Positions 4,471 through 64,000 of a stretch of DNA of 64,000 bases are shown piece by piece (positions within the stretch are counted from its first letter, which is position 1; every line of letters begins with the position of its first letter). The position numbers and the translations under genes were made by a program. The stretch is from Escherichia phage SF. The DNA is taken from the sequence record MH359124; one strand, written 5' to 3'. The notes under the pieces were generated by a model. It saw only the letters and a list, made by a program, of their open reading frames with translations, made no database searches and was not told the DNA's origin.

Positions 4471-6437
4471 TGTGAAATAGGCTCCAAATCTATGGTTAAA
4501 TATTGCGGACGTAAGTCATTTTCAAATACAATTAACGACCCGTCTTTAGTAAAGATAACATCATCAGCTGGGTCTGAATAGAGTTCAATAGTTTGAACTT
4601 CAAACCTATCAGAAGTTAAATCAATTTTAGCTATATTCCAATAAATTGAATCAGCCGGATAATTTACTTCACCTATAGAGTAATATTTGTTTCTTCCGTC
4701 CTTAACATTAAGTTTATTAAAATCGTCACCAGTATATGGTTGAATATAAGCGTTTTCTATAACGTCGCCATCTGCAAACGGGCCAATAATAACTTGTCCA
4801 ATGCCGCGGTCATTTCTATCTGAACCTACAATGCGAACGTCGTATTTAATAGTAACTTCCGTTTCAGGGTCAACGCGTAAACTATCAAATGAAAACACGT
4901 TAGATTCTAATGTTCTATCTTTAATCTGGTTATTGTATTTAATACCTGTTTCAGGTGTTTTGTAGAAGTTCTGTACCTCGCGAACCATTTGAATAGTCGC
5001 AGACGAACCAATGATAGAAATATCTGCGTCATCGACATACGTTAGCATTTTAGATTTTGCGAATGACGAGTTAAAAATTTCCACGTCTTCAATATAATAA
5101 CGGTCGATTTTATTAATAATTTGGCCTTCTAACCATTGTTCAGATTCCTGTAATTTGTTCAATGCATACGTAACGCGAATATTCATTTTAATAAACAAAT
5201 AATCAGGAGAAATAACAACAGGAGTTATCGTCCCTAAGTTATACTCATTAAGATAATTTTTAATATCGTCTCGTTGGACGGAAGTCAAATATAACCCAGA
5301 CTTAGGTTTAGCAGCAATAAATGCGTACCCAGGCTTAGATGAATCCGTAAATGTCTGAACCGCTTGAATAATAGAACCAAATCGCTCAGAGACGAATGTG
5401 TCGTAATCAGTCGCGGTCACACATCGTTGTTGAGTTTCGCGTTTAATTGTACCTAATTCACGGATACGTTCAATATCTTCAGGGTCGCCGCCGCCATCCG
5501 CGCCAACGAAGTCAGGGTTATTACTTGGGTTTTCATTAATTCCAATAACCGTGATATTAGCTAATGTATCAGCATAAGAAAATCCTACTGCACCATTTGC
5601 TTCAGCACCATTAGTAGAAATATATTCAATTACGATTTTAGAACCCTGAACAGGTTTAAGGCCACCAATATAGTTAGATGTTAACGCACCTTCTGATGTG
5701 TTAATAGAGATTTCGCCTTCACCAAAATAAAATTCAGTGTTCCCATCAACTGTTTCACGCATATAATAGATTGTTGACGTAGAACCAGCGTGAACCATCG
5801 ACTTACGAGTCCAGTTAATCCATTCTGCTCCGTCAACATACAACTTAACCAAATTACGGTCAATATTCTTATCACGAATAATGATAGGTTTTAATCTATC
5901 AAATGTTAATTCAGTGCGAACAATACGTCCTTGAGCTAATCGAAGACGTGGAAAATATTGGTTATTTTTGTCTTTAACTACAATGACATCTTCAGTAGAA
6001 ACAAAGTTATACGGGTTAACAGAAGTATCTTTAGCGTATGCTAAGAAACGAGTGCCACGTGGAATGGTGATATAGTTTCTATTTAATGCATCCGTACATG
6101 TGAGCATAATTTCTGTTTGTGCTGCTGATTTAGATGAAGGCAGATATCCGTTATCTTGAGCCGCTTGTACAACAGAACTACGCAAGTTTGCAGTACGCAT
6201 AAAACTTTCATACACTGCACTATTACTGAACTGTTGGATGTAAAGAGTGTTATATGCTAAAAGGTCACACAATACGTTTAAACGTGAACCTTCAAAATCA
6301 TAATCAAGAAATTCATTCTGTCCGTTGAGCCATTCGATAATGTTCTGTTTGATTTCGGCAAATGTGCCCCCGATAAAAATCTCGGGAATAGCATTCGCTG
6401 TTCGGGTTAATTGATAATTTACAGGAGTGTTTGCCAT
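4467..6437 (-). CDS. 6: baseplate wedge protein gp6
   Basis: Start moved to internal Met (MANTPVNYQLTRTANAIPEIF, matches T4 gp6 N-terminus); 656 aa. Confidence 0.85.
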   Translation of the reverse strand: MANTPVNYQLTRTANAIPEIFIGGTFAEIKQNIIEWLNGQNEFLDYDFEGSRLNVLCDLLAYNTLYIQQFSNSAVYESFMRTANLRSSVVQAAQDNGYLPSSKSAAQTEIMLTCTDALNRNYITIPRGTRFLAYAKDTSVNPYNFVSTEDVIVVKDKNNQYFPRLRLAQGRIVRTELTFDRLKPIIIRDKNIDRNLVKLYVDGAEWINWTRKSMVHAGSTSTIYYMRETVDGNTEFYFGEGEISINTSEGALTSNYIGGLKPVQGSKIVIEYISTNGAEANGAVGFSYADTLANITVIGINENPSNNPDFVGADGGGDPEDIERIRELGTIKRETQQRCVTATDYDTFVSERFGSIIQAVQTFTDSSKPGYAFIAAKPKSGLYLTSVQRDDIKNYLNEYNLGTITPVVISPDYLFIKMNIRVTYALNKLQESEQWLEGQIINKIDRYYIEDVEIFNSSFAKSKMLTYVDDADISIIGSSATIQMVREVQNFYKTPETGIKYNNQIKDRTLESNVFSFDSLRVDPETEVTIKYDVRIVGSDRNDRGIGQVIIGPFADGDVIENAYIQPYTGDDFNKLNVKDGRNKYYSIGEVNYPADSIYWNIAKIDLTSDRFEVQTIELYSDPADDVIFTKDGSLIVFENDLRPQYLTIDLEPISQ

Positions 6438-42719: not shown

Positions 42720-43193
42720 ATGTTATTATCAGGCGCAAAATACAAAGAAGAAAAACAAAAATTTTATGATGCACAGAATGGTAAGTGTCCTATTTGCCAC
42801 CGTGAATTAGACCCTGATGTTCAAGGTAACCATCTTGACCACGACCACGAATTAAACGGGCCAAAAGCAGGTAGAGTTCGTGGGTTACTCTGTAATCTGT
42901 GCAACGCAGCAGAAGGCCAAATGAAGCATAAGTTCAACCGTTCCGGTCTTAAAGGACGTGATGTCGACTACCTCGAATGGCTTGAAGCTCTTCTTGCTTA
43001 TTTGAAACAAGATTATTCTGATAATAATATCCATCCTAATTTTGTTCCAGACAAAACTAAAGAGTTCTCAAGACTAGGTAAAGAGGAAATGATGGCTGAG
43101 ATGCTTCAAAGAGGATTTGAATATAATGAATCTGATACCAAAACACAATTAATAGCTTCATTCAAAAAGCAGCTTAGAAAGAGTTTAAAATGA
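42720..43193 (+). CDS. 49: endonuclease VII (Holliday junction resolvase gp49)
   Basis: MLLSGAKYKEEKQKFYDAQNGKCPICHREL...; 157 aa; matches T4 gp49. Confidence 0.95.
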   Translation: MLLSGAKYKEEKQKFYDAQNGKCPICHRELDPDVQGNHLDHDHELNGPKAGRVRGLLCNLCNAAEGQMKHKFNRSGLKGRDVDYLEWLEALLAYLKQDYSDNNIHPNFVPDKTKEFSRLGKEEMMAEMLQRGFEYNESDTKTQLIASFKKQLRKSLK

Positions 43194-45007
43194 AAATTGA
43201 AAAAGAAATTGAAGGATTAATTCATAAAACTAATAAAGATCTTTTGAACGAGAATGCTAATAAAGATTCTCGTGTTTTTCCAACTCAACGGGACCTTATG
43301 GCTGGTATTGTGTCTAAGCACATTGCCAAAAATATGGTCCCGTCTTTTATTATGAAAGCACATGAAAGCGGAATTATCCATTTCCATGATATTGATTATT
43401 CCCCTGCACTTCCATTTACTAATTGCTGTTTAGTAGATTTAAAAGGAATGCTTGAAAACGGATTTAAGCTAGGTAACGCTCAAATTGAAACGCCTAAATC
43501 GATCGGTGTTGCTACTGCAATTATGGCACAAATTACTGCACAGGTTGCTTCTCATCAATATGGCGGAACGACTTTTGCGAATGTAGATAAAGTACTTTCT
43601 CCTTATGTTAAACGCACCTATGCAAAACATATTGAGGATGCAGAAAAATGGCAAATCGCTGATGCGTTGAATTATGCTCAATCCAAAACAGAAAAAGATG
43701 TCTATGACGCGTTCCAAGCTTATGAATATGAAGTAAATACTCTCTTTAGTTCAAACGGACAAACGCCTTTTGTAACAATTACATTTGGTACTGGAACTGA
43801 CTGGACTGAACGAATTATTCAGAAGGCAATTCTTAAAAACCGCATTAAAGGCCTTGGTCGTGATGGAATAACTCCTATTTTCCCTAAGCTTGTTATGTTC
43901 GTTGAAGAAGGCGTTAATCTTTATAAAGATGATCCAAACTATGATATTAAACAACTTGCGTTAGAATGTGCAAGCAAAAGAATGTATCCTGACATTATTT
44001 CGGTTAAGAATAATAAAGCTATTACCGGTTCTTCAGTTCCTGTTTCTCCAATGGGTTGCCGTAGTTTCTTGAGCGTATGGAAAGATTCGACTGGTAATGA
44101 AATTCTTGATGGACGTAATAATCTCGGTGTTGTAACACTGAATCTTCCTCGTATCGCATTAGATTCTTATATTGGAACACAGTTCAATGAACAGAAATTT
44201 ATTGAATTGTTCAATGAACGAATGGATTTGTGTTTTGAAGCATTGATGTGTAGAATTAGTTCTTTAAAGGGTGTTAAAGCGACTGTTGCTCCTATTCTTT
44301 ACCAAGAAGGTGCATTTGGGGTTCGTCTTAAACCTGACGATGATATAATTGAGTTATTTAAAAACGGTAGAAGTTCAGTGTCTTTAGGATACATTGGTAT
44401 TCACGAATTGAATATTCTTGTCGGTCGTGATATTGGACAAGAAATTTTGACTAAAATGAATGCTCGTCTTAAGCAGTGGACTGAAAGAACTGGATTTGCT
44501 TTTAGTTTATACTCTACTCCTGCTGAAAACCTTTGTTATCGCTTCTGTAAACTTGATACTGAAAAATATGGAAGTGTAAAGGATGTTACTGATAAAGGCT
44601 GGTACACTAATAGTTTCCATGTTTCAGTAGAAGAAAATATCACTCCGTTTGAAAAGATTTCTCGCGAAGCCCCATATCATTTCATTGCGACAGGCGGTCA
44701 CATTTCTTATGTTGAACTTCCTGATATGAAAAATAACTTAAAAGGTCTTGAGGCTGTCTGGGATTACGCTGCACAACATTTAGATTATTTTGGTGTTAAT
44801 ATGCCAGTAGATAAATGTTTTACATGTGGAAGTACACATGAAATGACTCCTACTGAAAACGGATTTGTTTGTTCTATTTGTGGAGAAACTGATCCTAAAA
44901 AGATGAACACCATAAGAAGAACATGCGGTTATCTTGGAAATCCGAACGAACGTGGATTTAATCTCGGCAAAAATAAAGAAATCATGCATAGGGTTAAACA
45001 CCAATGA
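43190..45007 (+). CDS. nrdD: anaerobic ribonucleoside-triphosphate reductase NrdD
   Basis: 605 aa as T4 NrdD; C-terminal CxxC...CxxC and glycyl radical motif RRTCGYLG; uninterrupted (no intron). Confidence 0.95.
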   Translation: MKIEKEIEGLIHKTNKDLLNENANKDSRVFPTQRDLMAGIVSKHIAKNMVPSFIMKAHESGIIHFHDIDYSPALPFTNCCLVDLKGMLENGFKLGNAQIETPKSIGVATAIMAQITAQVASHQYGGTTFANVDKVLSPYVKRTYAKHIEDAEKWQIADALNYAQSKTEKDVYDAFQAYEYEVNTLFSSNGQTPFVTITFGTGTDWTERIIQKAILKNRIKGLGRDGITPIFPKLVMFVEEGVNLYKDDPNYDIKQLALECASKRMYPDIISVKNNKAITGSSVPVSPMGCRSFLSVWKDSTGNEILDGRNNLGVVTLNLPRIALDSYIGTQFNEQKFIELFNERMDLCFEALMCRISSLKGVKATVAPILYQEGAFGVRLKPDDDIIELFKNGRSSVSLGYIGIHELNILVGRDIGQEILTKMNARLKQWTERTGFAFSLYSTPAENLCYRFCKLDTEKYGSVKDVTDKGWYTNSFHVSVEENITPFEKISREAPYHFIATGGHISYVELPDMKNNLKGLEAVWDYAAQHLDYFGVNMPVDKCFTCGSTHEMTPTENGFVCSICGETDPKKMNTIRRTCGYLGNPNERGFNLGKNKEIMHRVKHQ

Positions 45008-45474
45008 ATTATGATAGATTTTATCCTTGCGATTTTGTGAATGGCCCTGGATGCAGGGTCGTTCTTTTCGTTACAGGTTGTTTGCATAAATGCGAGGGGT
45101 GTTATAATAAATCAACATGGAATGCTAGAAACGGTATTCCATTCACTGGTGAAACACTAGAACAATTAATTGAATGTTTGAATAATGATTATATAGAAGG
45201 ATTAACTATAACTGGAGGAGACCCTCTCTATCCTGATAACCGAGATGTTATTCACTCTGTAGTTCAAACAGTAAAAAATCTTTATCCCAATAAAAGCATT
45301 TGGTTGTGGACAGGATATAAGTTTGAAGATATTAAACAACTAGAAATGCTTAAATATGTTGATGTTATTATTGATGGGAAGTATGAGAAAAATCTTCCGA
45401 CTAAAAAACTGTGGCGAGGATCAGATAATCAGCGACTTTGGTCAAATACCGATGGGGTGTGGAAACATGATTAA
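45004..45474 (+). CDS. nrdG: anaerobic RNR activating protein NrdG (radical SAM)
   Basis: CDFVNGPGCRVVLFVTGCLHKCEGC; 156 aa. Confidence 0.9.
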   Translation: MNYDRFYPCDFVNGPGCRVVLFVTGCLHKCEGCYNKSTWNARNGIPFTGETLEQLIECLNNDYIEGLTITGGDPLYPDNRDVIHSVVQTVKNLYPNKSIWLWTGYKFEDIKQLEMLKYVDVIIDGKYEKNLPTKKLWRGSDNQRLWSNTDGVWKHD

Positions 45475-57097: not shown

Positions 57098-59809
57098 ATG
57101 AAAGAATTTTACTTAACGGTTGAACAGATTGGTGATTCAATTTTCGAACGTTATATCGATTCTAACGGACGTGAACGTGTTCGTGAAGTAGAGTATAAGC
57201 CCTCGTTGTTTGCACATTGTCCAGAAAGTCAGGCCACGAAATATTTTGATATCTATGGTAAACCTTGTACTCGTAAACTGTTCGCTAACATGCGTGACGC
57301 GTCTCAATGGATTAAACGCATGGAAGATATCGGACTTGAAGCACTTGGCATGGACGATTTCAAATTGGCGTATTTGTCTGACACTTATAACTATGAAATC
57401 AAATATGACCATACAAAAATTCGTGTGGCTAACTTCGACATCGAAGTAACATCTCCGGACGGGTTCCCTGAGCCGTCACAAGCAAAACATCCGATTGATG
57501 CTATTACCCATTATGACTCAATTGACGACAGGTTCTACGTATTTGATCTATTGAATTCTCCATATGGTAATGTAGAAGAATGGTCTATCGAAATTGCGGC
57601 TAAGCTTCAAGAACAAGGTGGTGATGAAGTTCCGTCTGAAATTATCGATAAAATCATTTATATGCCGTTCGATAACGAAAAAGAATTGTTGATGGAATAT
57701 CTCAACTTCTGGCAACAGAAAACTCCTGTCATTTTGACTGGATGGAACGTTGAGTCATTTGATATTCCATATGTGTATAACCGAATCAAGAATATTTTTG
57801 GCGAATCTACCGCGAAACGTTTATCACCACATCGTAAAACTCGTGTTAAAGTTATCGAAAACATGTATGGTTCTCGTGAAATCATTACATTGTTCGGTAT
57901 CTCTGTTCTTGATTACATTGACCTTTACAAAAAATTCTCTTTTACCAATCAACCGTCATATTCTCTGGATTACATTTCAGAATTTGAATTGAACGTTGGT
58001 AAACTGAAATATGACGGCCCTATTTCTAAGCTTCGTGAAAGCAATCACCAACGATATATTTCTTATAACATTATCGACGTGTATCGTGTATTGCAAATTG
58101 ATGCTAAGCGTCAGTTCATCAACTTGAGTTTGGACATGGGTTATTATGCTAAGATACAGATTCAATCTGTGTTTAGTCCAATTAAAACATGGGATGCTAT
58201 TATTTTTAATAGCCTTAAAGAGCAGAACAAGGTGATTCCACAAGGTCGTTCTCACCCGGTTCAACCTTATCCTGGCGCTTTTGTTAAGGAACCTATTCCA
58301 AATCGATACAAATATGTAATGAGTTTCGACCTTACATCTCTGTATCCAAGTATTATTCGCCAAGTGAATATTAGCCCGGAAACAATAGCAGGAACGTTTA
58401 AAGTAGCTCCACTGCATGATTATATTAATGCAATCGCTGAACGTCCTTCTGATGTGTACAGTTGCTCTCCTAACGGCATGATGTATTATAAAGACCGTGA
58501 TGGTGTAGTTCCAACTGAAATCACTAAGGTCTTTAATCAACGTAAAGAACATAAAGGTTACATGCTTGCAGCTCAACGTAATGGTGAAATAATTAAAGAG
58601 GCATTGCATAATCCTAATCTTTCTGTTGACGAACCATTAGATGTTGATTATCGTTTCGACTTCAGCGATGAGATTAAAGAAAAGATTAAAAAGTTGTCTG
58701 CTAAATCTCTTAATGAAATGTTGTTTAGAGCTCAACGTACTGAAGTTGCAGGTATGACTGCACAGATTAACCGTAAATTGCTCATCAACTCGCTTTATGG
58801 TGCACTTGGAAACGTTTGGTTCCGTTATTACGATTTGCGTAATGCTACTGCAATCACAACATTTGGTCAAATGGCTTTACAGTGGATTGAACGTAAAGTT
58901 AATGAATATCTGAATGAAGTTTGTGGTACAGAAGGCGAAGCTTTCGTTCTATATGGTGATACAGACTCCATTTACGTATCTGCAGATAAAATTATTGATA
59001 AGGTTGGTGAATCTAAATTCCGTGATACCAACCATTGGGTAGACTTCTTAGATAAGTTTGCACGTGAACGTATGGAACCTGCTATTGATAGAGGTTTCCG
59101 TGAAATGTGCGAATACATGAATAATAAGCAACATTTGATGTTCATGGACCGAGAAGCTATCGCTGGGCCTCCACTCGGTTCTAAAGGTATTGGTGGATTC
59201 TGGACTGGTAAGAAACGTTATGCCTTAAACGTGTGGGATATGGAAGGTACTCGTTACGCTGAGCCTAAACTCAAAATCATGGGTCTAGAGACTCAGAAAT
59301 CTTCGACTCCTAAAGCAGTACAGAAAGCTCTTAAAGAATGTATTCGTCGTATGCTTCAAGAAGGTGAAGAATCATTACAAGAATATTTTAAAGAGTTTGA
59401 AAAAGAATTCCGTCGATTGAATTATATTAGCATCGCGTCGGTATCTTCTGCGAATAACATTGCTAAATATGATGTAGGTGGATTCCCTGGTCCCAAATGC
59501 CCGTTCCATATTCGTGGAATTCTGACGTATAACCGGGCTATCAAAGGTAATATCGATGCACCGCAAGTTGTAGAAGGTGAAAAAGTATATGTTCTGCCTT
59601 TACGTGAAGGAAACCCATTCGGTGATAAATGTATCGCATGGCCTTCTGGTACTGAAATCACAGATTTAATTAAAGACGACGTACTTCATTGGATGGACTA
59701 CACTGTTCTCCTTGAGAAGACATTTATTAAACCACTTGAAGGATTCACATCAGCAGCGAAACTCGATTATGAGAAGAAAGCATCTCTGTTCGATATGTTC
59801 GATTTTTGA
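57098..59809 (+). CDS. 43: DNA polymerase gp43 (family B)
   Basis: 903 aa; exonuclease FDIE, polymerase motifs SLYPS and YGDTDS; N-terminus MKEFYLTVEQIGDSIFERYID like T4 gp43. Confidence 0.97.
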   Translation: MKEFYLTVEQIGDSIFERYIDSNGRERVREVEYKPSLFAHCPESQATKYFDIYGKPCTRKLFANMRDASQWIKRMEDIGLEALGMDDFKLAYLSDTYNYEIKYDHTKIRVANFDIEVTSPDGFPEPSQAKHPIDAITHYDSIDDRFYVFDLLNSPYGNVEEWSIEIAAKLQEQGGDEVPSEIIDKIIYMPFDNEKELLMEYLNFWQQKTPVILTGWNVESFDIPYVYNRIKNIFGESTAKRLSPHRKTRVKVIENMYGSREIITLFGISVLDYIDLYKKFSFTNQPSYSLDYISEFELNVGKLKYDGPISKLRESNHQRYISYNIIDVYRVLQIDAKRQFINLSLDMGYYAKIQIQSVFSPIKTWDAIIFNSLKEQNKVIPQGRSHPVQPYPGAFVKEPIPNRYKYVMSFDLTSLYPSIIRQVNISPETIAGTFKVAPLHDYINAIAERPSDVYSCSPNGMMYYKDRDGVVPTEITKVFNQRKEHKGYMLAAQRNGEIIKEALHNPNLSVDEPLDVDYRFDFSDEIKEKIKKLSAKSLNEMLFRAQRTEVAGMTAQINRKLLINSLYGALGNVWFRYYDLRNATAITTFGQMALQWIERKVNEYLNEVCGTEGEAFVLYGDTDSIYVSADKIIDKVGESKFRDTNHWVDFLDKFARERMEPAIDRGFREMCEYMNNKQHLMFMDREAIAGPPLGSKGIGGFWTGKKRYALNVWDMEGTRYAEPKLKIMGLETQKSSTPKAVQKALKECIRRMLQEGEESLQEYFKEFEKEFRRLNYISIASVSSANNIAKYDVGGFPGPKCPFHIRGILTYNRAIKGNIDAPQVVEGEKVYVLPLREGNPFGDKCIAWPSGTEITDLIKDDVLHWMDYTVLLEKTFIKPLEGFTSAAKLDYEKKASLFDMFDF

Positions 59810-59849: not shown

Positions 59850-60485
59850 ATGAAAACTACTCCTATTACTATCGCTATTGACGCAATCATAAAACAAGCT
59901 TCTTCTTTGGCCGCTATGGCCAAAGTAATTAGTCAAAACCCTGCTCGTTATAATGCTATTTTAGAAACTCTTCGACGCCCGGGACTTAGTAATTATGAAA
60001 GCCGAGTAATTATTACAGGTGTTGGTAAGAACGCTAATATCGCAACTAAAGCTTCTGAGACTTTTGCTTCACTCGGTATACCGAGTATGTACTTGAACAC
60101 TGGGCATTATTCTCACGGTGATGCAGGATTCATTGCGCCTAATGATGTGTTGATTCATATTAGTCGTTCTGGTAAAACTGAAGAAATGATAGGTGTGGCT
60201 AAGCATCTTAAAATGATTCGTCCGAACGTCAAACAGATTCTGTTGCATTGTAACCCAGACATTCCGCAAGAAAATGAAGCCCTTTTTGATTACTCTTTCT
60301 GTACAGGCATCGCTGTAGAAGTTGACGAGAACTCTTTAGCTCCGACTATGTCCACTACATTGTTGTTAGCGCTTATCGATACGTTTGCTATCAACCTTTC
60401 GTCTGAACGTGGATTTACCTCTAATGACTTCCTTAAGTTCCACCCTGGTGGTGCACTAGGTGCCATGTTACGAGGCGAACAATGA
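59850..60485 (+). CDS. SIS-domain sugar-phosphate isomerase (GmhA/KdsD-like)
   Basis: ITGVGKNANIATKASETFASLGIPSMYLNTGHYSHGD matches SIS phosphosugar-binding fold; 211 aa, no CBS domains. Confidence 0.7.
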   Translation: MKTTPITIAIDAIIKQASSLAAMAKVISQNPARYNAILETLRRPGLSNYESRVIITGVGKNANIATKASETFASLGIPSMYLNTGHYSHGDAGFIAPNDVLIHISRSGKTEEMIGVAKHLKMIRPNVKQILLHCNPDIPQENEALFDYSFCTGIAVEVDENSLAPTMSTTLLLALIDTFAINLSSERGFTSNDFLKFHPGGALGAMLRGEQ

Positions 60486-60625
60486 AAGCAATAACAATAG
60501 GACTTTTACTATTGATGCTTGTCATGACTATCTACTGGAGCTTAACGGCTCCAGTAATGGTCCCGACTCTTATAATCGGATGGATTATGATTGGACTACA
60601 AGCAAAGTATGAATGCTTTAACTAG
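60482..60625 (+). CDS. small hydrophobic membrane peptide (47 aa)
   Basis: ATGA-coupled; MKAITIGLLLLMLVMTIYWSLTAPVMVPTLIIGWIMIGL; below track cutoff. Confidence 0.4.
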   Translation: MKAITIGLLLLMLVMTIYWSLTAPVMVPTLIIGWIMIGLQAKYECFN

Positions 60626-60666: not shown

Positions 60667-62352
60667 ATGAAAAAAGCTGTTATTCTTGGTGCTGGACTGG
60701 CAACTCGTTTGTATCCAATAACGCATCATATTCCTAAGGTGCTTGTTAACTATAAACAAGACACTATTCTGAGCAATTTGTATACAATCTATTCTGACCT
60801 TGGCGCAGATGAAATTATTGTAGTAGTTCATTCAAAATTTGCTGAAACCGTTCGAGCTTATTGTGAGCAAGAAGGGTTCAATGTGACTATTCGTACAGTT
60901 GATGAAGCGTATGGTTCTGCTTATGCTCTTGCTAAATTACACAAAGATTTAGACGGCCATAATGTAATTGTTAACTGGTGTGATATTATTCCCGATTTTG
61001 GTTCATGGTCTTGGAATGTTAACGCAATCTATGTTAAGGGTGACGAATGTCGATATAATTTCGACGGTGAAAATATCACTAACGTAGGTTCAACAGGTGG
61101 TAATGTTGTAGGAATTTATCAGTTCAAAGACTGGGAATTCTATATGGGTTCTACTGATGAGGAAATTCATGAATACTGCAAAGGACGCGATTTCGTAGAA
61201 TTCCTTTACGGCAGTGCATTCAATAAATCAGAGCTTATGAATCTAATTGATTTAGGTGATATGCCTAAACTTGAAAAAGCTCATGAAGTTCGTGAACTTA
61301 ATCGTAGTTTTAATGCAGTTGAAATTGGTGAAGAAACTGTAACTAAATTCGCATTAACCGAACAGGGTCGAGCTCTTCAGAAAGATGAGATTTCGTGGTA
61401 TCTTAAAGTGAAATCAGATTCAGTTCCTCAGTTAGTTTCTGTTAATGAAAATAACTTTGAAATGGAACGCATTAAAGGTAAGCCGGCATTTGAATATATT
61501 AAATCCAAATCAAGTCTTGCTCGACCACAAATTGTTGATGCAATCTTAGATGCACTGAAATTCAGCACAGACACTTATTTTGTAAGTCCTGAAACTGTTC
61601 GTCGTGATTTCACTAAAGAATTCTATACTAAAGTTATTGATCGTTGCGAAAGTATTCAACCATTGATTGATTCATTTGGTAAAATCACACATGTGAACTA
61701 CACTAAGATCGGACGTCTGAAGCCAATGTTGAAACAAGCTTTAGAACACCTTATTCGTTATCATAACCGTTCTCAGGGACAGTACTCTGTTATTCATGGC
61801 GACCCGAACTTCAGTAATACTATGATTACTGATAATGGTGAAGTCAAGTTTATCGACCCTCGTGGATATTTTGGCGAAACCAAGATTTACGGACCAAAAT
61901 TGTATGATGAAGCTAAAGTGCTTTACGCCGTTTCAGGTTATGATGAATTCAACGCTAATCCGACCTGGGGGCAGTTTACTATTGATGAAACAACTTGTAA
62001 TGTGACTATTAACATCAATCCATTAGTTTACAAATATGGAAAGATGAGTTCGTTTAACGAGTATCATCATTTGGCAGTGGCAATTATCTGGATTGCATTA
62101 GGTGGTTATTTCAAGAATAATCCACTTAAAGCGGTAGCCGCATATTATAAAGGTATGGAACTTCTGACTAAGCAATTACGTAACATGGGCCGTGTACTTC
62201 AGGACGGCTCTATTAGTTACGACGTAGCAGAACCTGTAACGGCTACTCTGATTACAAAAAATCCTGGTAAATGGGTACTAACTGATAAAGAAACTGGTGT
62301 TTCTTATCGTCCAATCGGTGGCGATATCACTCATCAATGGGAACGAATCTAA
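60667..62352 (+). CDS. bifunctional sugar-1-phosphate nucleotidyltransferase / APH-type sugar kinase
   Basis: N-terminal AVILGAGLATRLYPIT...PKVLV (RmlA/GlmU-type NTase signature); C-terminal VIHGDPNFSNTMIT and IDPRGYFG (aminoglycoside/choline/anomeric kinase motifs); 561 aa. Confidence 0.7.
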   Translation: MKKAVILGAGLATRLYPITHHIPKVLVNYKQDTILSNLYTIYSDLGADEIIVVVHSKFAETVRAYCEQEGFNVTIRTVDEAYGSAYALAKLHKDLDGHNVIVNWCDIIPDFGSWSWNVNAIYVKGDECRYNFDGENITNVGSTGGNVVGIYQFKDWEFYMGSTDEEIHEYCKGRDFVEFLYGSAFNKSELMNLIDLGDMPKLEKAHEVRELNRSFNAVEIGEETVTKFALTEQGRALQKDEISWYLKVKSDSVPQLVSVNENNFEMERIKGKPAFEYIKSKSSLARPQIVDAILDALKFSTDTYFVSPETVRRDFTKEFYTKVIDRCESIQPLIDSFGKITHVNYTKIGRLKPMLKQALEHLIRYHNRSQGQYSVIHGDPNFSNTMITDNGEVKFIDPRGYFGETKIYGPKLYDEAKVLYAVSGYDEFNANPTWGQFTIDETTCNVTININPLVYKYGKMSSFNEYHHLAVAIIWIALGGYFKNNPLKAVAAYYKGMELLTKQLRNMGRVLQDGSISYDVAEPVTATLITKNPGKWVLTDKETGVSYRPIGGDITHQWERI

Positions 62353-62738: not shown

Positions 62739-62798
62739 TAATTTAAGTAAGACCTGCAAAAACCATCGCGTCAATTAACGTGAGATGCAAAAAAAAAA

Positions 62799-63959
62799 AT
62801 GAATACTTTTAAAATCGGAACGAATTTTGATTTAGCTCTTCTTGATAAAATCGTAGAGCTCAATAAAACTTATCCTAATAGCTTGATAAACGAAGTATAC
62901 GGCTCTACAAGAGAAATGGCTTTTGTAGCAGCCAGACCTGATTTTAGGCTTCCTGACGTTGACAAAAAGATGTTAGAAGATTACGTTAAACGTTGTAACG
63001 AATTGGGTATTTGCTTTAACTATACACTCAACACGATAAATCCTGGTTCAAAAAGAGAACTAGTTGAGTGGAAGAAGAAAGCTATTCAGGATTATGTTCA
63101 GTATCTTTGGTCAATAGGTGTATGGCGTATTACTATCGCTAACCCTGTTGTTATGGAAATTGTTCGTGAAGTCAATAAAGACATTGAGATTGAAGTTTCA
63201 ACAATTCTACATGTCGATGCTGTAACTCAAATCAAATACTTGCATGACCAATATAATATCAAAAAGGTCTGCTGTGGAATTCATAAGAACCGTTCAGTTT
63301 CTTTCCTGAAGCGTGCAGCAGAGTTTTGTAATAAGAACAATATAATATTTGAAGTTCTCGTAAATGAATTCTGCTCTAATGCTGGTAAAGGGTATACAAC
63401 ACATTGTAGCTATCGTGACTCTTGCTATATTTTCCATAGCACCGATGTTACAGTAGATGATGCCAAATCCTTAAATGGATATCCAATGCAACACTGTATT
63501 AAAGCTCGTGATACAGATCCATTTAACTGGTTGAGAACTCGTTTTGTTCGTCCTCAAGATTTGAAACTTTATAATGATATTGGTATCACTCAATTTAAAG
63601 TTTCGGGACGTACAGGTAGCACAGACTACATTTTGAAAGTTCTTGAAGCTTATGCTTCTGAAAAGTTTGAAGGTAATTTGTTAGAACTGTGGAAGCCTTT
63701 AGAGACCATTTTCACTCTTGAAAATGAGACCGAGTTTTCACATACGGTAAATATTGAAACCTCTTTGTTAGATGGCTTTTTAGAAAAAAGGTGGTTCAAA
63801 CATCCGGATTTCGATTGTGCTAATGAAATCTGCGGGACGACGTGTACATATTGTGAAAGATATTATAAACGTCAGTTATCTAAAAATGGGTTATCAGAAA
63901 ACTCTATATCTATTATTGATATAACTAACTCTGATGACGCTTTGAGGTACCCAGAATGA
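62799..63959 (+). CDS. U32-family (peptidase U32 / RlhA-TrhP-UbiU-like) protein with CxxxCxxC cluster
   Basis: EVLVNEFCSNAGKGYTTHCSYRDSC resembles U32 signature EVFAFGSLC..GRCYLS; FKVSGRTGS resembles U32 KIEGR; C-terminal CANEICGTTCTYC. Confidence 0.55.
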   Translation: MNTFKIGTNFDLALLDKIVELNKTYPNSLINEVYGSTREMAFVAARPDFRLPDVDKKMLEDYVKRCNELGICFNYTLNTINPGSKRELVEWKKKAIQDYVQYLWSIGVWRITIANPVVMEIVREVNKDIEIEVSTILHVDAVTQIKYLHDQYNIKKVCCGIHKNRSVSFLKRAAEFCNKNNIIFEVLVNEFCSNAGKGYTTHCSYRDSCYIFHSTDVTVDDAKSLNGYPMQHCIKARDTDPFNWLRTRFVRPQDLKLYNDIGITQFKVSGRTGSTDYILKVLEAYASEKFEGNLLELWKPLETIFTLENETEFSHTVNIETSLLDGFLEKRWFKHPDFDCANEICGTTCTYCERYYKRQLSKNGLSENSISIIDITNSDDALRYPE

Positions 63960-64000
63960 TTTCTAGAAAAAACTTTTAACCACCAACTTAACGAAGAGAT

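Follow-up and report, generated by a model that had tools for sequence, protein, structure and literature searches.

The last 10 kb of a 64,000-nucleotide stretch of Escherichia phage SF (sequence record MH359124; we call the whole 64-kb stretch that was analyzed the window) hold a T4-type replication region on the + strand, and at its end lies the subject of this study, an open reading frame (ORF) for a U32-family protein. The order along the + strand is gp45 sliding clamp, gp44/gp62 clamp loader, RegA, gp43, SIS isomerase, nucleotidyltransferase/kinase, HAD phosphatase and U32; the last of these runs from ATG to TGA and encodes 386 amino acids. The original prediction, made from the letters of the window, placed a U32 protein with a cysteine cluster next to sugar-activation genes, and both the family and the setting hold: the isomerase, nucleotidyltransferase/kinase and phosphatase genes precede U32 and themselves follow gp43. 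The reading that we favor with some reserve, drawn from sequence and gene context, is that U32 is an O2-independent, prephenate-dependent cytosine C5 hydroxylase in a DNA-modification pathway. The genes at the locus are the following.

57098-59809, + strand: DNA polymerase gp43, which precedes the nucleotide-sugar genes.

59850..60485, + strand: SIS-domain arabinose-5-phosphate isomerase, ortholog of RB69 gp55 (Pfam SIS, E 1e-10; annotations in relatives; PMC13326640).

60667..62352, + strand: bifunctional nucleotidyltransferase / sugar kinase, RB69 gp52:53, AfhE-like (Pfam NTP_transferase and weak kinase matches; PMC13326640).

62337..62738, + strand: HAD-type phosphatase, RB69 gp51, AfhF-like (PMC13326640 and relatives); the annotation of relatives starts it at the in-frame ATG at 62352 rather than at 62337.

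62799..63959, + strand: U32-family protein, ortholog of RB69 gp50 (RB69p050), Pfam PF01136; a predicted iron-sulfur (Fe-S) enzyme.

63955..64000, + strand: start of a homolog of RB69ORF049, which overlaps the U32 stop codon as ATGA, is frameshifted in an A6 run and is truncated by the end of the window.

The window ends 41 bases past the U32 stop codon. Many Mosigvirus (RB69-like) coliphages share 98% identity with it over the 4.2-kb stretch past gp43, and in these relatives the genes continue with RB69ORF049, a thymidylate-synthase homolog, a glycosyltransferase, a thymidylate-kinase-like gene and uvsX. This is the Straboviridae cluster for arabinosyl-5-hydroxycytosine (5-hydroxycytosine is abbreviated 5hoC), which stretches from gp43 to uvsX and comprises arabinose-5-phosphate isomerase, nucleotidyltransferase/kinase, HAD phosphatase, in some phages U32, a ThyA-like gene, glycosyltransferase and kinase. 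The window carries its first four post-gp43 genes, and the remainder is found in the 98% identical relatives, in RB69 and in HY126. U32 thus sits between the genes for UDP-arabinose and the gene for the synthase of 5-hydroxy-dCMP (5hodCMP). The U32 ORF is a genuine gene and not a chance ORF, because it is undamaged in all 220 phage records that bear it and because comparison with orthologs from six other genera gives dN/dS values of 0.03-0.08; the gene is under purifying selection. Its product shares 99.2% identity with RB69 gp50 and 99.5% with the HY126 homolog.

The chemistry of this cluster has been revised only lately. RB69 DNA was formerly believed to contain arabinosyl-hydroxymethylcytosine (PMC6024577); the 2026 work shows that in RB69-type DNA arabinose is ether-linked to 5-hydroxycytosine (PMC13326640). 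In that work, 5-hydroxy-dCMP is made by a ThyA homolog, gp48, which binds flavin and takes its oxygen from O2, as established by 18O2 labelling (PMC13326640), and the paper cites He et al. 2026 for the same conclusion in phage HY126. The three genes upstream of U32 lead from ribulose-5-phosphate to UDP-arabinofuranose (PMC13326640): the SIS isomerase of the RB69 gp55 type is the opening step, and, in the summary of He et al. given there, the passage from arabinose-5-phosphate to UDP-arabinose is assigned to the kinase/pyrophosphorylase and the phosphatase. A dCTPase is among the genes listed (PMC13326640). Acinetobacter phage DLP3 carries tri-arabinosyl-5hoC, and its listed cluster contains no U32 (PMC13326640). 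For gp50 itself the paper holds a single entry in Table 1, "sugar or heterocycle reductase" with a structural match to 5D88, and no discussion; the discussion section does mention RNA pyrimidine hydroxylation (RlhA and work on 5-hydroxyuridine, ho5U, in tRNA) and makes no tie to gp50. A study of Shewanella phage Thanatos, whose U32 is 80% identical to ours, offers no hypothesis for the source of the cytosine hydroxyl, and a transposon-mutagenesis preprint on LC53 and Bas46 does not mention these genes. The statement in the original prediction that such chemistry is not known for T4-type DNA modification is therefore outdated as far as 5-hydroxycytosine goes; in the literature that we searched, it still stands for a route through U32. 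Its further idea, that hydroxylation of a pyrimidine would create a glycosylation site, fits the arabinosyl-5hoC of RB69-type phages (PMC13326640) and the linkage to prephenate-making enzymes described below, but the demonstrated hydroxylase is gp48, and U32 can therefore be at most a second, O2-independent route.

We turn to the protein. Pfam PF01136 (Peptidase_U32) matches residues 94-286 with E 6.3e-11 and 42.4 bits against a curated cut-off of 22.4, the same domain is precomputed on nearly all homologs, and no other Pfam domain appears at E up to 0.1. A 49-homolog alignment gave a confident AlphaFold2 model (mean per-residue confidence, pLDDT, 91.8; predicted template-modeling score, pTM, 0.90) that bears out the U32 TIM barrel, and fold searches retrieve PDB 5D88 (MK0906). 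Neither the single sequence nor the 49-sequence profile yielded a meaningful match in sequence searches of the PDB. MK0906, the only U32 structure from the PDB search, is an archaeal protein of 247 amino acids with 14% identity to the phage protein and lacks a counterpart of its C-terminal Cys-rich region. There are 13 cysteines in the phage protein (66, 72, 158, 159, 177, 192, 203, 209, 233, 340, 345, 349 and 352), and ten of them (158, 177, 192, 203, 209, 233, 340, 345, 349 and 352) are invariant in the 49 homologs, which reach down to 46% identity, so that the cysteine cluster seen in the single sequence is indeed conserved. Two regions stand out.

63366..63437, + strand: U32 motif region, residues 190-213, EFCSNAGKGYTTHCSYRDSCYIFH, with invariant E190, C192, C203, R206, C209, Y210 and H213.

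63816..63854, + strand: C-terminal CX4CX3CX2C cluster of the invariant C340, C345, C349 and C352, a candidate second metal or Fe-S site.

The classical U32 signature E-x-F-...-C-x(4-6)-C has no literal match here; instead E190, F191, C203 and C209, all invariant within the clade, pair with RlhA E161, F162, C169 and C176 across a 5-residue insertion. We regard U32 as very probably an Fe-S enzyme. A profile of the clade retrieves 1689 proteins at E up to 1e-3 from 1.84 billion representatives, far below the yield expected for the whole superfamily in our own judgement of how abundant U32 proteins are, and for this reason we read the phage clade as a small, well-separated branch that is mostly phage-borne.

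To place this branch among the characterized enzymes we compared it by hhalign with the four U32 paralogs of E. coli MG1655, a comparison of the kind that the original prediction had proposed with RlhA, TrhP and UbiU. RlhA (YdcP) aligns best, with probability 80% and E 1.4e-5 over 203 columns, and the invariant E190, C203 and C209 of the phage protein pair with its E161, C169 and C176; TrhP (YegQ, 453 amino acids) reaches 10% over 128 columns with no close profile similarity beyond the U32 catalytic domain, UbiU 5% and UbiV 0.4%. RlhA is the synthase of 5-hydroxycytidine (ho5C) at C2501 of 23S rRNA and needs prephenate and Fe-S cluster biogenesis; C169 and C176 are essential by mutation, and E161A leaves trace activity only (PMC5727448). 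Its chemistry, C5 hydroxylation of cytosine, is the one that we propose for the phage protein. The two proteins nonetheless differ in build. RlhA has 653 amino acids and acts on the pre-50S ribosome, the alignment spans only its residues 46-258, and its C-terminal region with the essential C580 and C611 has no counterpart in the 386-residue phage protein, which, unlike RlhA, has a CX4CX3CX2C tail of its own, six further invariant cysteines and a gene in a DNA-modification cluster.

The other paralogs supply precedents of a different kind. TrhP, a prephenate-dependent U32 protein, and TrhO, an O2-dependent enzyme, make one and the same product, ho5U34 in tRNA, and both are kept in organisms able to live with and without oxygen (PMC6599085); here the substrate is a uridine in tRNA, and TrhO is a rhodanese, whereas the O2-dependent partner in the phage is a flavin-binding ThyA homolog. 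UbiU and UbiV are small 4Fe-4S U32 proteins (331 and 292 amino acids, near the size of the phage protein) that act on a small aromatic substrate and serve as the O2-independent counterpart of the flavin monooxygenases UbiI/H/F, and 18O labelling identified prephenate as their oxygen donor (PMC10990095). Unlike the phage protein, they form a heterodimer that needs the lipid carrier UbiT; no second U32, UbiV, UbiT or SCP2 gene is annotated in the clusters of T4-like phages. The sole NCBIfam match of the phage protein is the UbiU model NF047963, at 19.4 bits against a cut-off of 440. Judged by these profiles, the protein is a member of the U32 superfamily and of none of its characterized subfamilies. 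Finally, gp48 of RB69, with its ThyA-type counterparts DLP3 gp80 and the HY126 homolog, would share its product, 5-hydroxy-dCMP, with U32 and lies in the same cluster two genes downstream, in relatives just past the point where the window ends, but it has a thymidylate-synthase fold unrelated to U32, uses flavin and O2, and has an activity demonstrated by experiment where the role of U32 is proposed.

An indirect pointer to the oxygen donor comes from the genes next door. In Enterobacter phage Entb_45 (Kanagawavirus), a gene for a 79-residue AroQ chorismate mutase overlaps the U32 stop codon (CM_2, E 2.4e-10, 40.9 bits against a cut-off of 27; several NCBIfam chorismate-mutase models also match), and a chorismate mutase lies directly 3' of U32 in about a dozen other T4-like genera; in most of the non-Mosigvirus T4-like genera sampled, chorismate mutase and/or DAHP synthase genes adjoin U32. 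By tblastn, homologs of the Entb_45 enzyme occur in 55 genuine phage records, all of them T4-like, and among the matches listed every such record has a U32 'peptidase' and/or a ThyA-like gene under or beside the chorismate mutase. (A 56th match, MT836175.1, was discarded as a bacterial fragment with PheA and gyrB.) The hosts of these phages are Klebsiella, Serratia, Yersinia, Enterobacter, Edwardsiella, Erwinia, Proteus, Pectobacterium, Kosakonia, Providencia, Morganella and Shewanella and, for a few of them, E. coli and Shigella.

The association extends well beyond T4-like phages. In viral contigs, a scan found 34 loci outside the T4-like group whose U32 shares 34-55% identity with that of the window; many of these loci lie on contigs of 120-290 kb. 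Chorismate mutase or DAHP synthase adjoins U32 in 13 of the 34 (Pfam, and six-frame profile searches with separate models for the two domains, since greedy ORF calling misses small chorismate mutase genes). The architectures are a DAHP synthase-chorismate mutase fusion, a DAHP synthase, separate genes for both, or chorismate mutase alone; the 350-residue proteins brought up by an iterative chorismate-mutase hidden Markov model (HMM) are genuine fusions. Four of six contigs from metagenome-assembled genomes (MAGs), to which we return below, show the linkage as well. Three different gene architectures, in lineages with little else in common, thus put prephenate-making enzymes beside this U32. 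Prephenate is genetically required both for RlhA-dependent ho5C (PMC5727448) and for TrhP-dependent ho5U (PMC6599085), and we consider it likely that the phage U32 is linked to prephenate too. The fusion stands beside U32 at loci L038, L039, L041, L042 and L052 (for example L041:7302-8354) and on a Gastranaerophilaceae MAG contig (L094:6922-7956). The shikimate pathway begins with DAHP synthase, and chorismate mutase, which yields prephenate, acts later, at a branch point. The fused gene looks like an auxiliary metabolic gene that would drive host carbon to prephenate.

The distribution of U32 among T4-like phages separates it from the sugar genes. Acinetobacter phage AM101 has the same cluster in the same order, with HAD followed directly by the ThyA-like gene and with U32 and chorismate mutase absent; Dhakavirus Bp7 has HAD, then a kinase-like gene, then the ThyA-like gene, and again neither U32 nor chorismate mutase. 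Since these clusters, and the modification of DLP3, do without it, U32 is unnecessary for making or attaching arabinose. The ThyA-like gene is found in 344 phage records, 57 of them from Acinetobacter phages; for U32, Acinetobacter is outside the ten commonest names among the 220 records, which means at most 3 Acinetobacter records. Hosts of the U32-bearing phages listed are Enterobacterales or Shewanella, all facultative anaerobes; Acinetobacter is a strict aerobe. On this pattern, U32 would be an accessory module that tracks anoxia and not the sugar. The window phage itself encodes an anaerobic ribonucleotide reductase 17 kb upstream of U32.

43190..45474, + strand: NrdD (43190-45007) and NrdG (45004-45474), anaerobic ribonucleotide reductase and its activase (Pfam NRDD, E 5e-171; Fer4_12 / Radical_SAM).

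Judging by these two genes, the phage is equipped for replication without O2, that is, for the condition in which the O2-dependent gp48 could not supply 5hodCMP. As a separate observation, homologs of NrdD occur in 2790 phage records, whose ten most frequent host names again do not include Acinetobacter; this would fit a picture in which phages of aerobes have neither of the two anaerobic functions (NrdD and U32).

Outside the T4-like group we can also ask what else U32 keeps company with. A homolog of gp46:47, the RB69 5hoC arabinosyltransferase, is its commonest neighbor, found at 17 of 27 non-redundant loci, in most cases immediately upstream of U32 (phmmer E 1e-6 to 1e-16). The same 27 loci contain nucleotidyltransferase/kinase fusions (10), thymidylate-kinase-like genes (8) and SIS isomerases (7), together with dCMP deaminase, dUTPase, deoxynucleoside kinase and NT5C genes; genes of deoxynucleotide metabolism are enriched, and at some loci nucleotide-metabolism genes are the only company, without any sugar genes. 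Within 10 kb of U32, the non-T4-like loci hold no ThyA hydroxylase of the RB69 type. Among 185,579 species-representative genomes (GTDB) the clade occurs on six MAG contigs only, with 26-35% G+C, and no ThyA-like gene was found on these six. They are assigned to Erysipelotrichales, Bacillota, Gastranaerophilaceae, Romboutsia (two) and Lachnospiraceae, where the binning gives a mere hint of the phage host; such taxa are anaerobic inhabitants of the gut. Possibly, then, U32 is the only hydroxylase in phages of strict anaerobes. A weak ThyA match at locus L029 was inspected by eye and not counted as a 5hodCMP synthase, since it looks like a canonical thymidylate synthase with Asn at the presumed dUMP/dCMP-discriminating position.

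Two features of these loci stand apart. Within about 3 kb of U32, the 27 non-redundant loci (from among L002-L061) hold six ATP-grasp ligases of the RimK / glutathione-synthetase type and three uracil-DNA-glycosylase-family genes, which a scheme of hydroxylation and arabinosylation leaves unexplained and which could serve further elaboration or repair of the modified base. A Bacillota-type contig (L003:12160-14360; L093:13224-14357) has another U32-like ORF, of very distant similarity, 4 kb downstream of its main U32, where it comes after a radical SAM/SPASM gene and lies amid genes for a deoxynucleoside kinase, an NT5C nucleotidase and a nucleoside deoxyribosyltransferase; it may belong to a different nucleotide modification.

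We can now state the mechanism that we have in mind. In an O2-independent reaction, U32 would hydroxylate cytosine at C5 with prephenate as the oxygen donor, as it is for UbiU/V. Its substrate would most likely be dCMP, less likely cytosine in DNA, and the product 5-hydroxy-dCMP, which phage kinases would phosphorylate and the polymerase incorporate; the glycosyltransferases of the cluster would then arabinosylate 5hoC with UDP-arabinose from the three upstream genes. In Mosigvirus, U32 would act beside the flavin- and O2-dependent ThyA-type 5hodCMP synthase, such that hypermodification continues in the anoxic gut, a logic that parallels TrhO/TrhP for tRNA ho5U and UbiI/H/F versus UbiU/V for ubiquinone. 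We favor dCMP over DNA because T4-type phages replace cytosine at the level of the nucleotide, because the neighbors are nucleotide kinases, deaminases and nucleotidases, and because U32 has the size of the small-molecule enzymes UbiU/V. Whether the picture can be generalized, so that U32 and a chorismate mutase that supplies it with prephenate, in some cases fused to DAHP synthase, form a widespread phage module for O2-independent cytosine C5 hydroxylation, the anaerobic twin of 5hodCMP synthase in enteric T4-like phages and the only hydroxylase in gut phages of strict anaerobes, is in our estimate evenly balanced.

The alternative that survives best keeps the chemistry and changes the substrate: U32 might hydroxylate cytosine in DNA, or in another polynucleotide, after replication and in this way rescue unmodified C. 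Both RlhA (PMC5727448) and TrhP (PMC6599085) work on polynucleotides, RlhA is the best-aligning E. coli paralog, and arabinosyl transfer takes place on DNA (PMC13326640). The phage protein, however, has the catalytic U32 domain as its only Pfam match, no counterpart of the RlhA C580/C611 region was found in it, and in size it is near UbiU/UbiV, which act on a small molecule; T4-type phages destroy dCTP and swap C at the nucleotide level, which would leave scant substrate in DNA; and the neighbors include thymidylate-kinase-like genes, dCMP deaminase, deoxynucleoside kinase and NT5C. We consider this version unlikely.

A role on the sugar branch, or on some other heterocycle, is what the label "sugar or heterocycle reductase" in Table 1 of PMC13326640 would suggest, with arabinose phosphate or a nucleotide sugar as examples of substrates. 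U32 does lie directly 3' of three sugar-activation genes, and homologs of the SIS and nucleotidyltransferase/kinase genes accompany it in unrelated phages. Yet the clusters of AM101 and DLP3 lack U32 and DLP3 makes arabinosyl-5hoC nonetheless, the steps from arabinose-5-phosphate to UDP-arabinose are, in the summary of He et al. in PMC13326640, already assigned to the kinase/pyrophosphorylase and phosphatase, some U32 loci have nucleotide-metabolism genes and no sugar genes, and the linkage to chorismate mutase and DAHP synthase suggests prephenate chemistry, which has been proposed for aromatic rings (PMC10990095). This we find distinctly unlikely.

U32 could instead be an RNA hydroxylase of the TrhP/RlhA type that adjusts translation by modifying tRNA or rRNA of the host or the phage, its position in the cluster being incidental. 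T4-like phages are known to manipulate translation, and the characterized nucleic-acid substrates of U32 proteins are all RNA. But the arabinosyltransferase homolog and the nucleotide and sugar genes adjoin U32 even in lineages at 34-55% identity, the extra C-terminal domains of RlhA and TrhP are absent, and U32 is gained and lost with the DNA-modification cluster and not with tRNA genes, which leaves this a slim chance. The protease reading, which most genome records ('peptidase U32 / collagenase') and the name of the Pfam family still carry, we reject as highly improbable: RlhA, TrhP and UbiU/V are tied to hydroxylation rather than proteolysis, and ten invariant cysteines and a linkage to prephenate enzymes would have no rationale in a protease.

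Several points weigh against the C5 hydroxylase as such. The similarity to RlhA is weak or marginal and the NCBIfam match to UbiU is below threshold, and the subfamily therefore does not predict the substrate; moreover, direct hydroxylase activity of RlhA and TrhP themselves is undemonstrated, in vitro assays being awaited as of the 2024 PNAS paper (PMC10990095). Co-location with sugar genes would equally fit a sugar-directed role. Chorismate mutase and DAHP synthase are both absent within 10 kb of U32 in 21 of the 34 non-T4-like loci, Marfavirus has no gene at all in the chorismate mutase slot, and in Mosigviruses, the window phage included, that slot is filled by RB69ORF049, which is frameshifted in several isolates; for lack of their own chorismate mutase, Mosigviruses would have to rely on host PheA/TyrA for prephenate. 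Dhakaviruses infect E. coli yet lack U32, which is thus not indispensable for an enteric host. A peptide-pattern scan of the viral collection for the ThyA family left the non-T4-like contigs unmatched, but such a scan would miss distant relatives. Finally, full-text searches found no paper that ties a phage U32 or a phage chorismate mutase to DNA hydroxylation, with He 2026 (Nat Chem Biol) and Mahler 2025 (Cell Host Microbe), which may treat the gene, outside their scope.

What would follow if the C5 hydroxylase reading is correct? The use of 5-hydroxycytosine as an anchor for glycosylation of phage DNA was recognized only in 2025-2026. Earlier work lists the gene and describes the modification, while the proposed function, the linkage to chorismate mutase and DAHP synthase, the absence of the U32-chorismate mutase module from the examined Acinetobacter phage cluster and the occurrence of U32 in phages of strict anaerobes with no ThyA-type hydroxylase found nearby appear to be new. 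RB69-type phages infect gut bacteria and carry an anaerobic ribonucleotide reductase, yet their demonstrated 5hoC enzyme needs O2; a U32 hydroxylase would explain how 5hoC hypermodification, and with it protection from restriction and CRISPR, is kept up in anoxic habitats. DNA precursors would join RNA and quinones among the substrates of U32 hydroxylases, which would be the first DNA-directed or deoxynucleotide function in the family, and these would be the first phages to raise shikimate-pathway flux for DNA modification. A deoxynucleotide substrate may also suit the long-sought in vitro assay for U32 enzymes, and the combination of U32, chorismate mutase/DAHP synthase and glycosyltransferase would be a sequence marker of hypermodified DNA in uncultured phages of strict anaerobes. 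For phage therapy, it is worth noting that phages grown aerobically in the laboratory may use a different enzyme than they do in the gut.

A few smaller observations concern the immediate surroundings of the gene. Scans for promoters and terminators around U32 gave sites not above those in shuffled sequence. The start codon is preceded by one of only two homopolymer runs of at least 9 in the 64-kb window.

62789..62799, + strand: A11 homopolymer, whose last A is the A of the U32 start codon; the run varies from A4 to A12 among near-identical phages.

Its length is A12 in 308Ecol101PP, A7 in phiE142, A6 in RB69, A5 in HY126 and A4 in Marfa, and the A12 of 308Ecol101PP brings an upstream ATG into frame, which extends U32 by MQKKK. 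The tract might tune translation of U32, or might be a slippage-prone 'contingency' tract.

At the other end of U32, the RB69ORF049 homolog has an extra A in the window phage (A6 rather than A5) and stops after 7 codons, as against 79 amino acids in RB69 (L006:4158-4397); HY126 and 308Ecol101PP carry different frameshifts, in short homopolymers. This may be a decaying gene, or the frameshifts may be sequencing errors. We had considered RB69ORF049 as a diverged chorismate mutase and rejected the idea, with no Pfam match at E up to 10 and an hhalign probability of 0.08%. Between the SIS isomerase and nucleotidyltransferase/kinase genes, an ORF of about 47-50 codons at 60460-60612 corresponds to RB69ORF054; its position is kept in RB69, HY126 and 308Ecol101PP, and relatives annotate it as hypothetical or as a second 'phosphosugar isomerase'. 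In the RB69 record NC_004928.1, the nucleotidyltransferase/kinase is annotated as two ORFs (p052/p053), and so is the glycosyltransferase (p046/p047; L006:873-2559 and 5156-6056, respectively). The nucleotidyltransferase/kinase is one ORF in the window and in HY126, in agreement with the sequencing errors in RB69 reported in PMC13326640.

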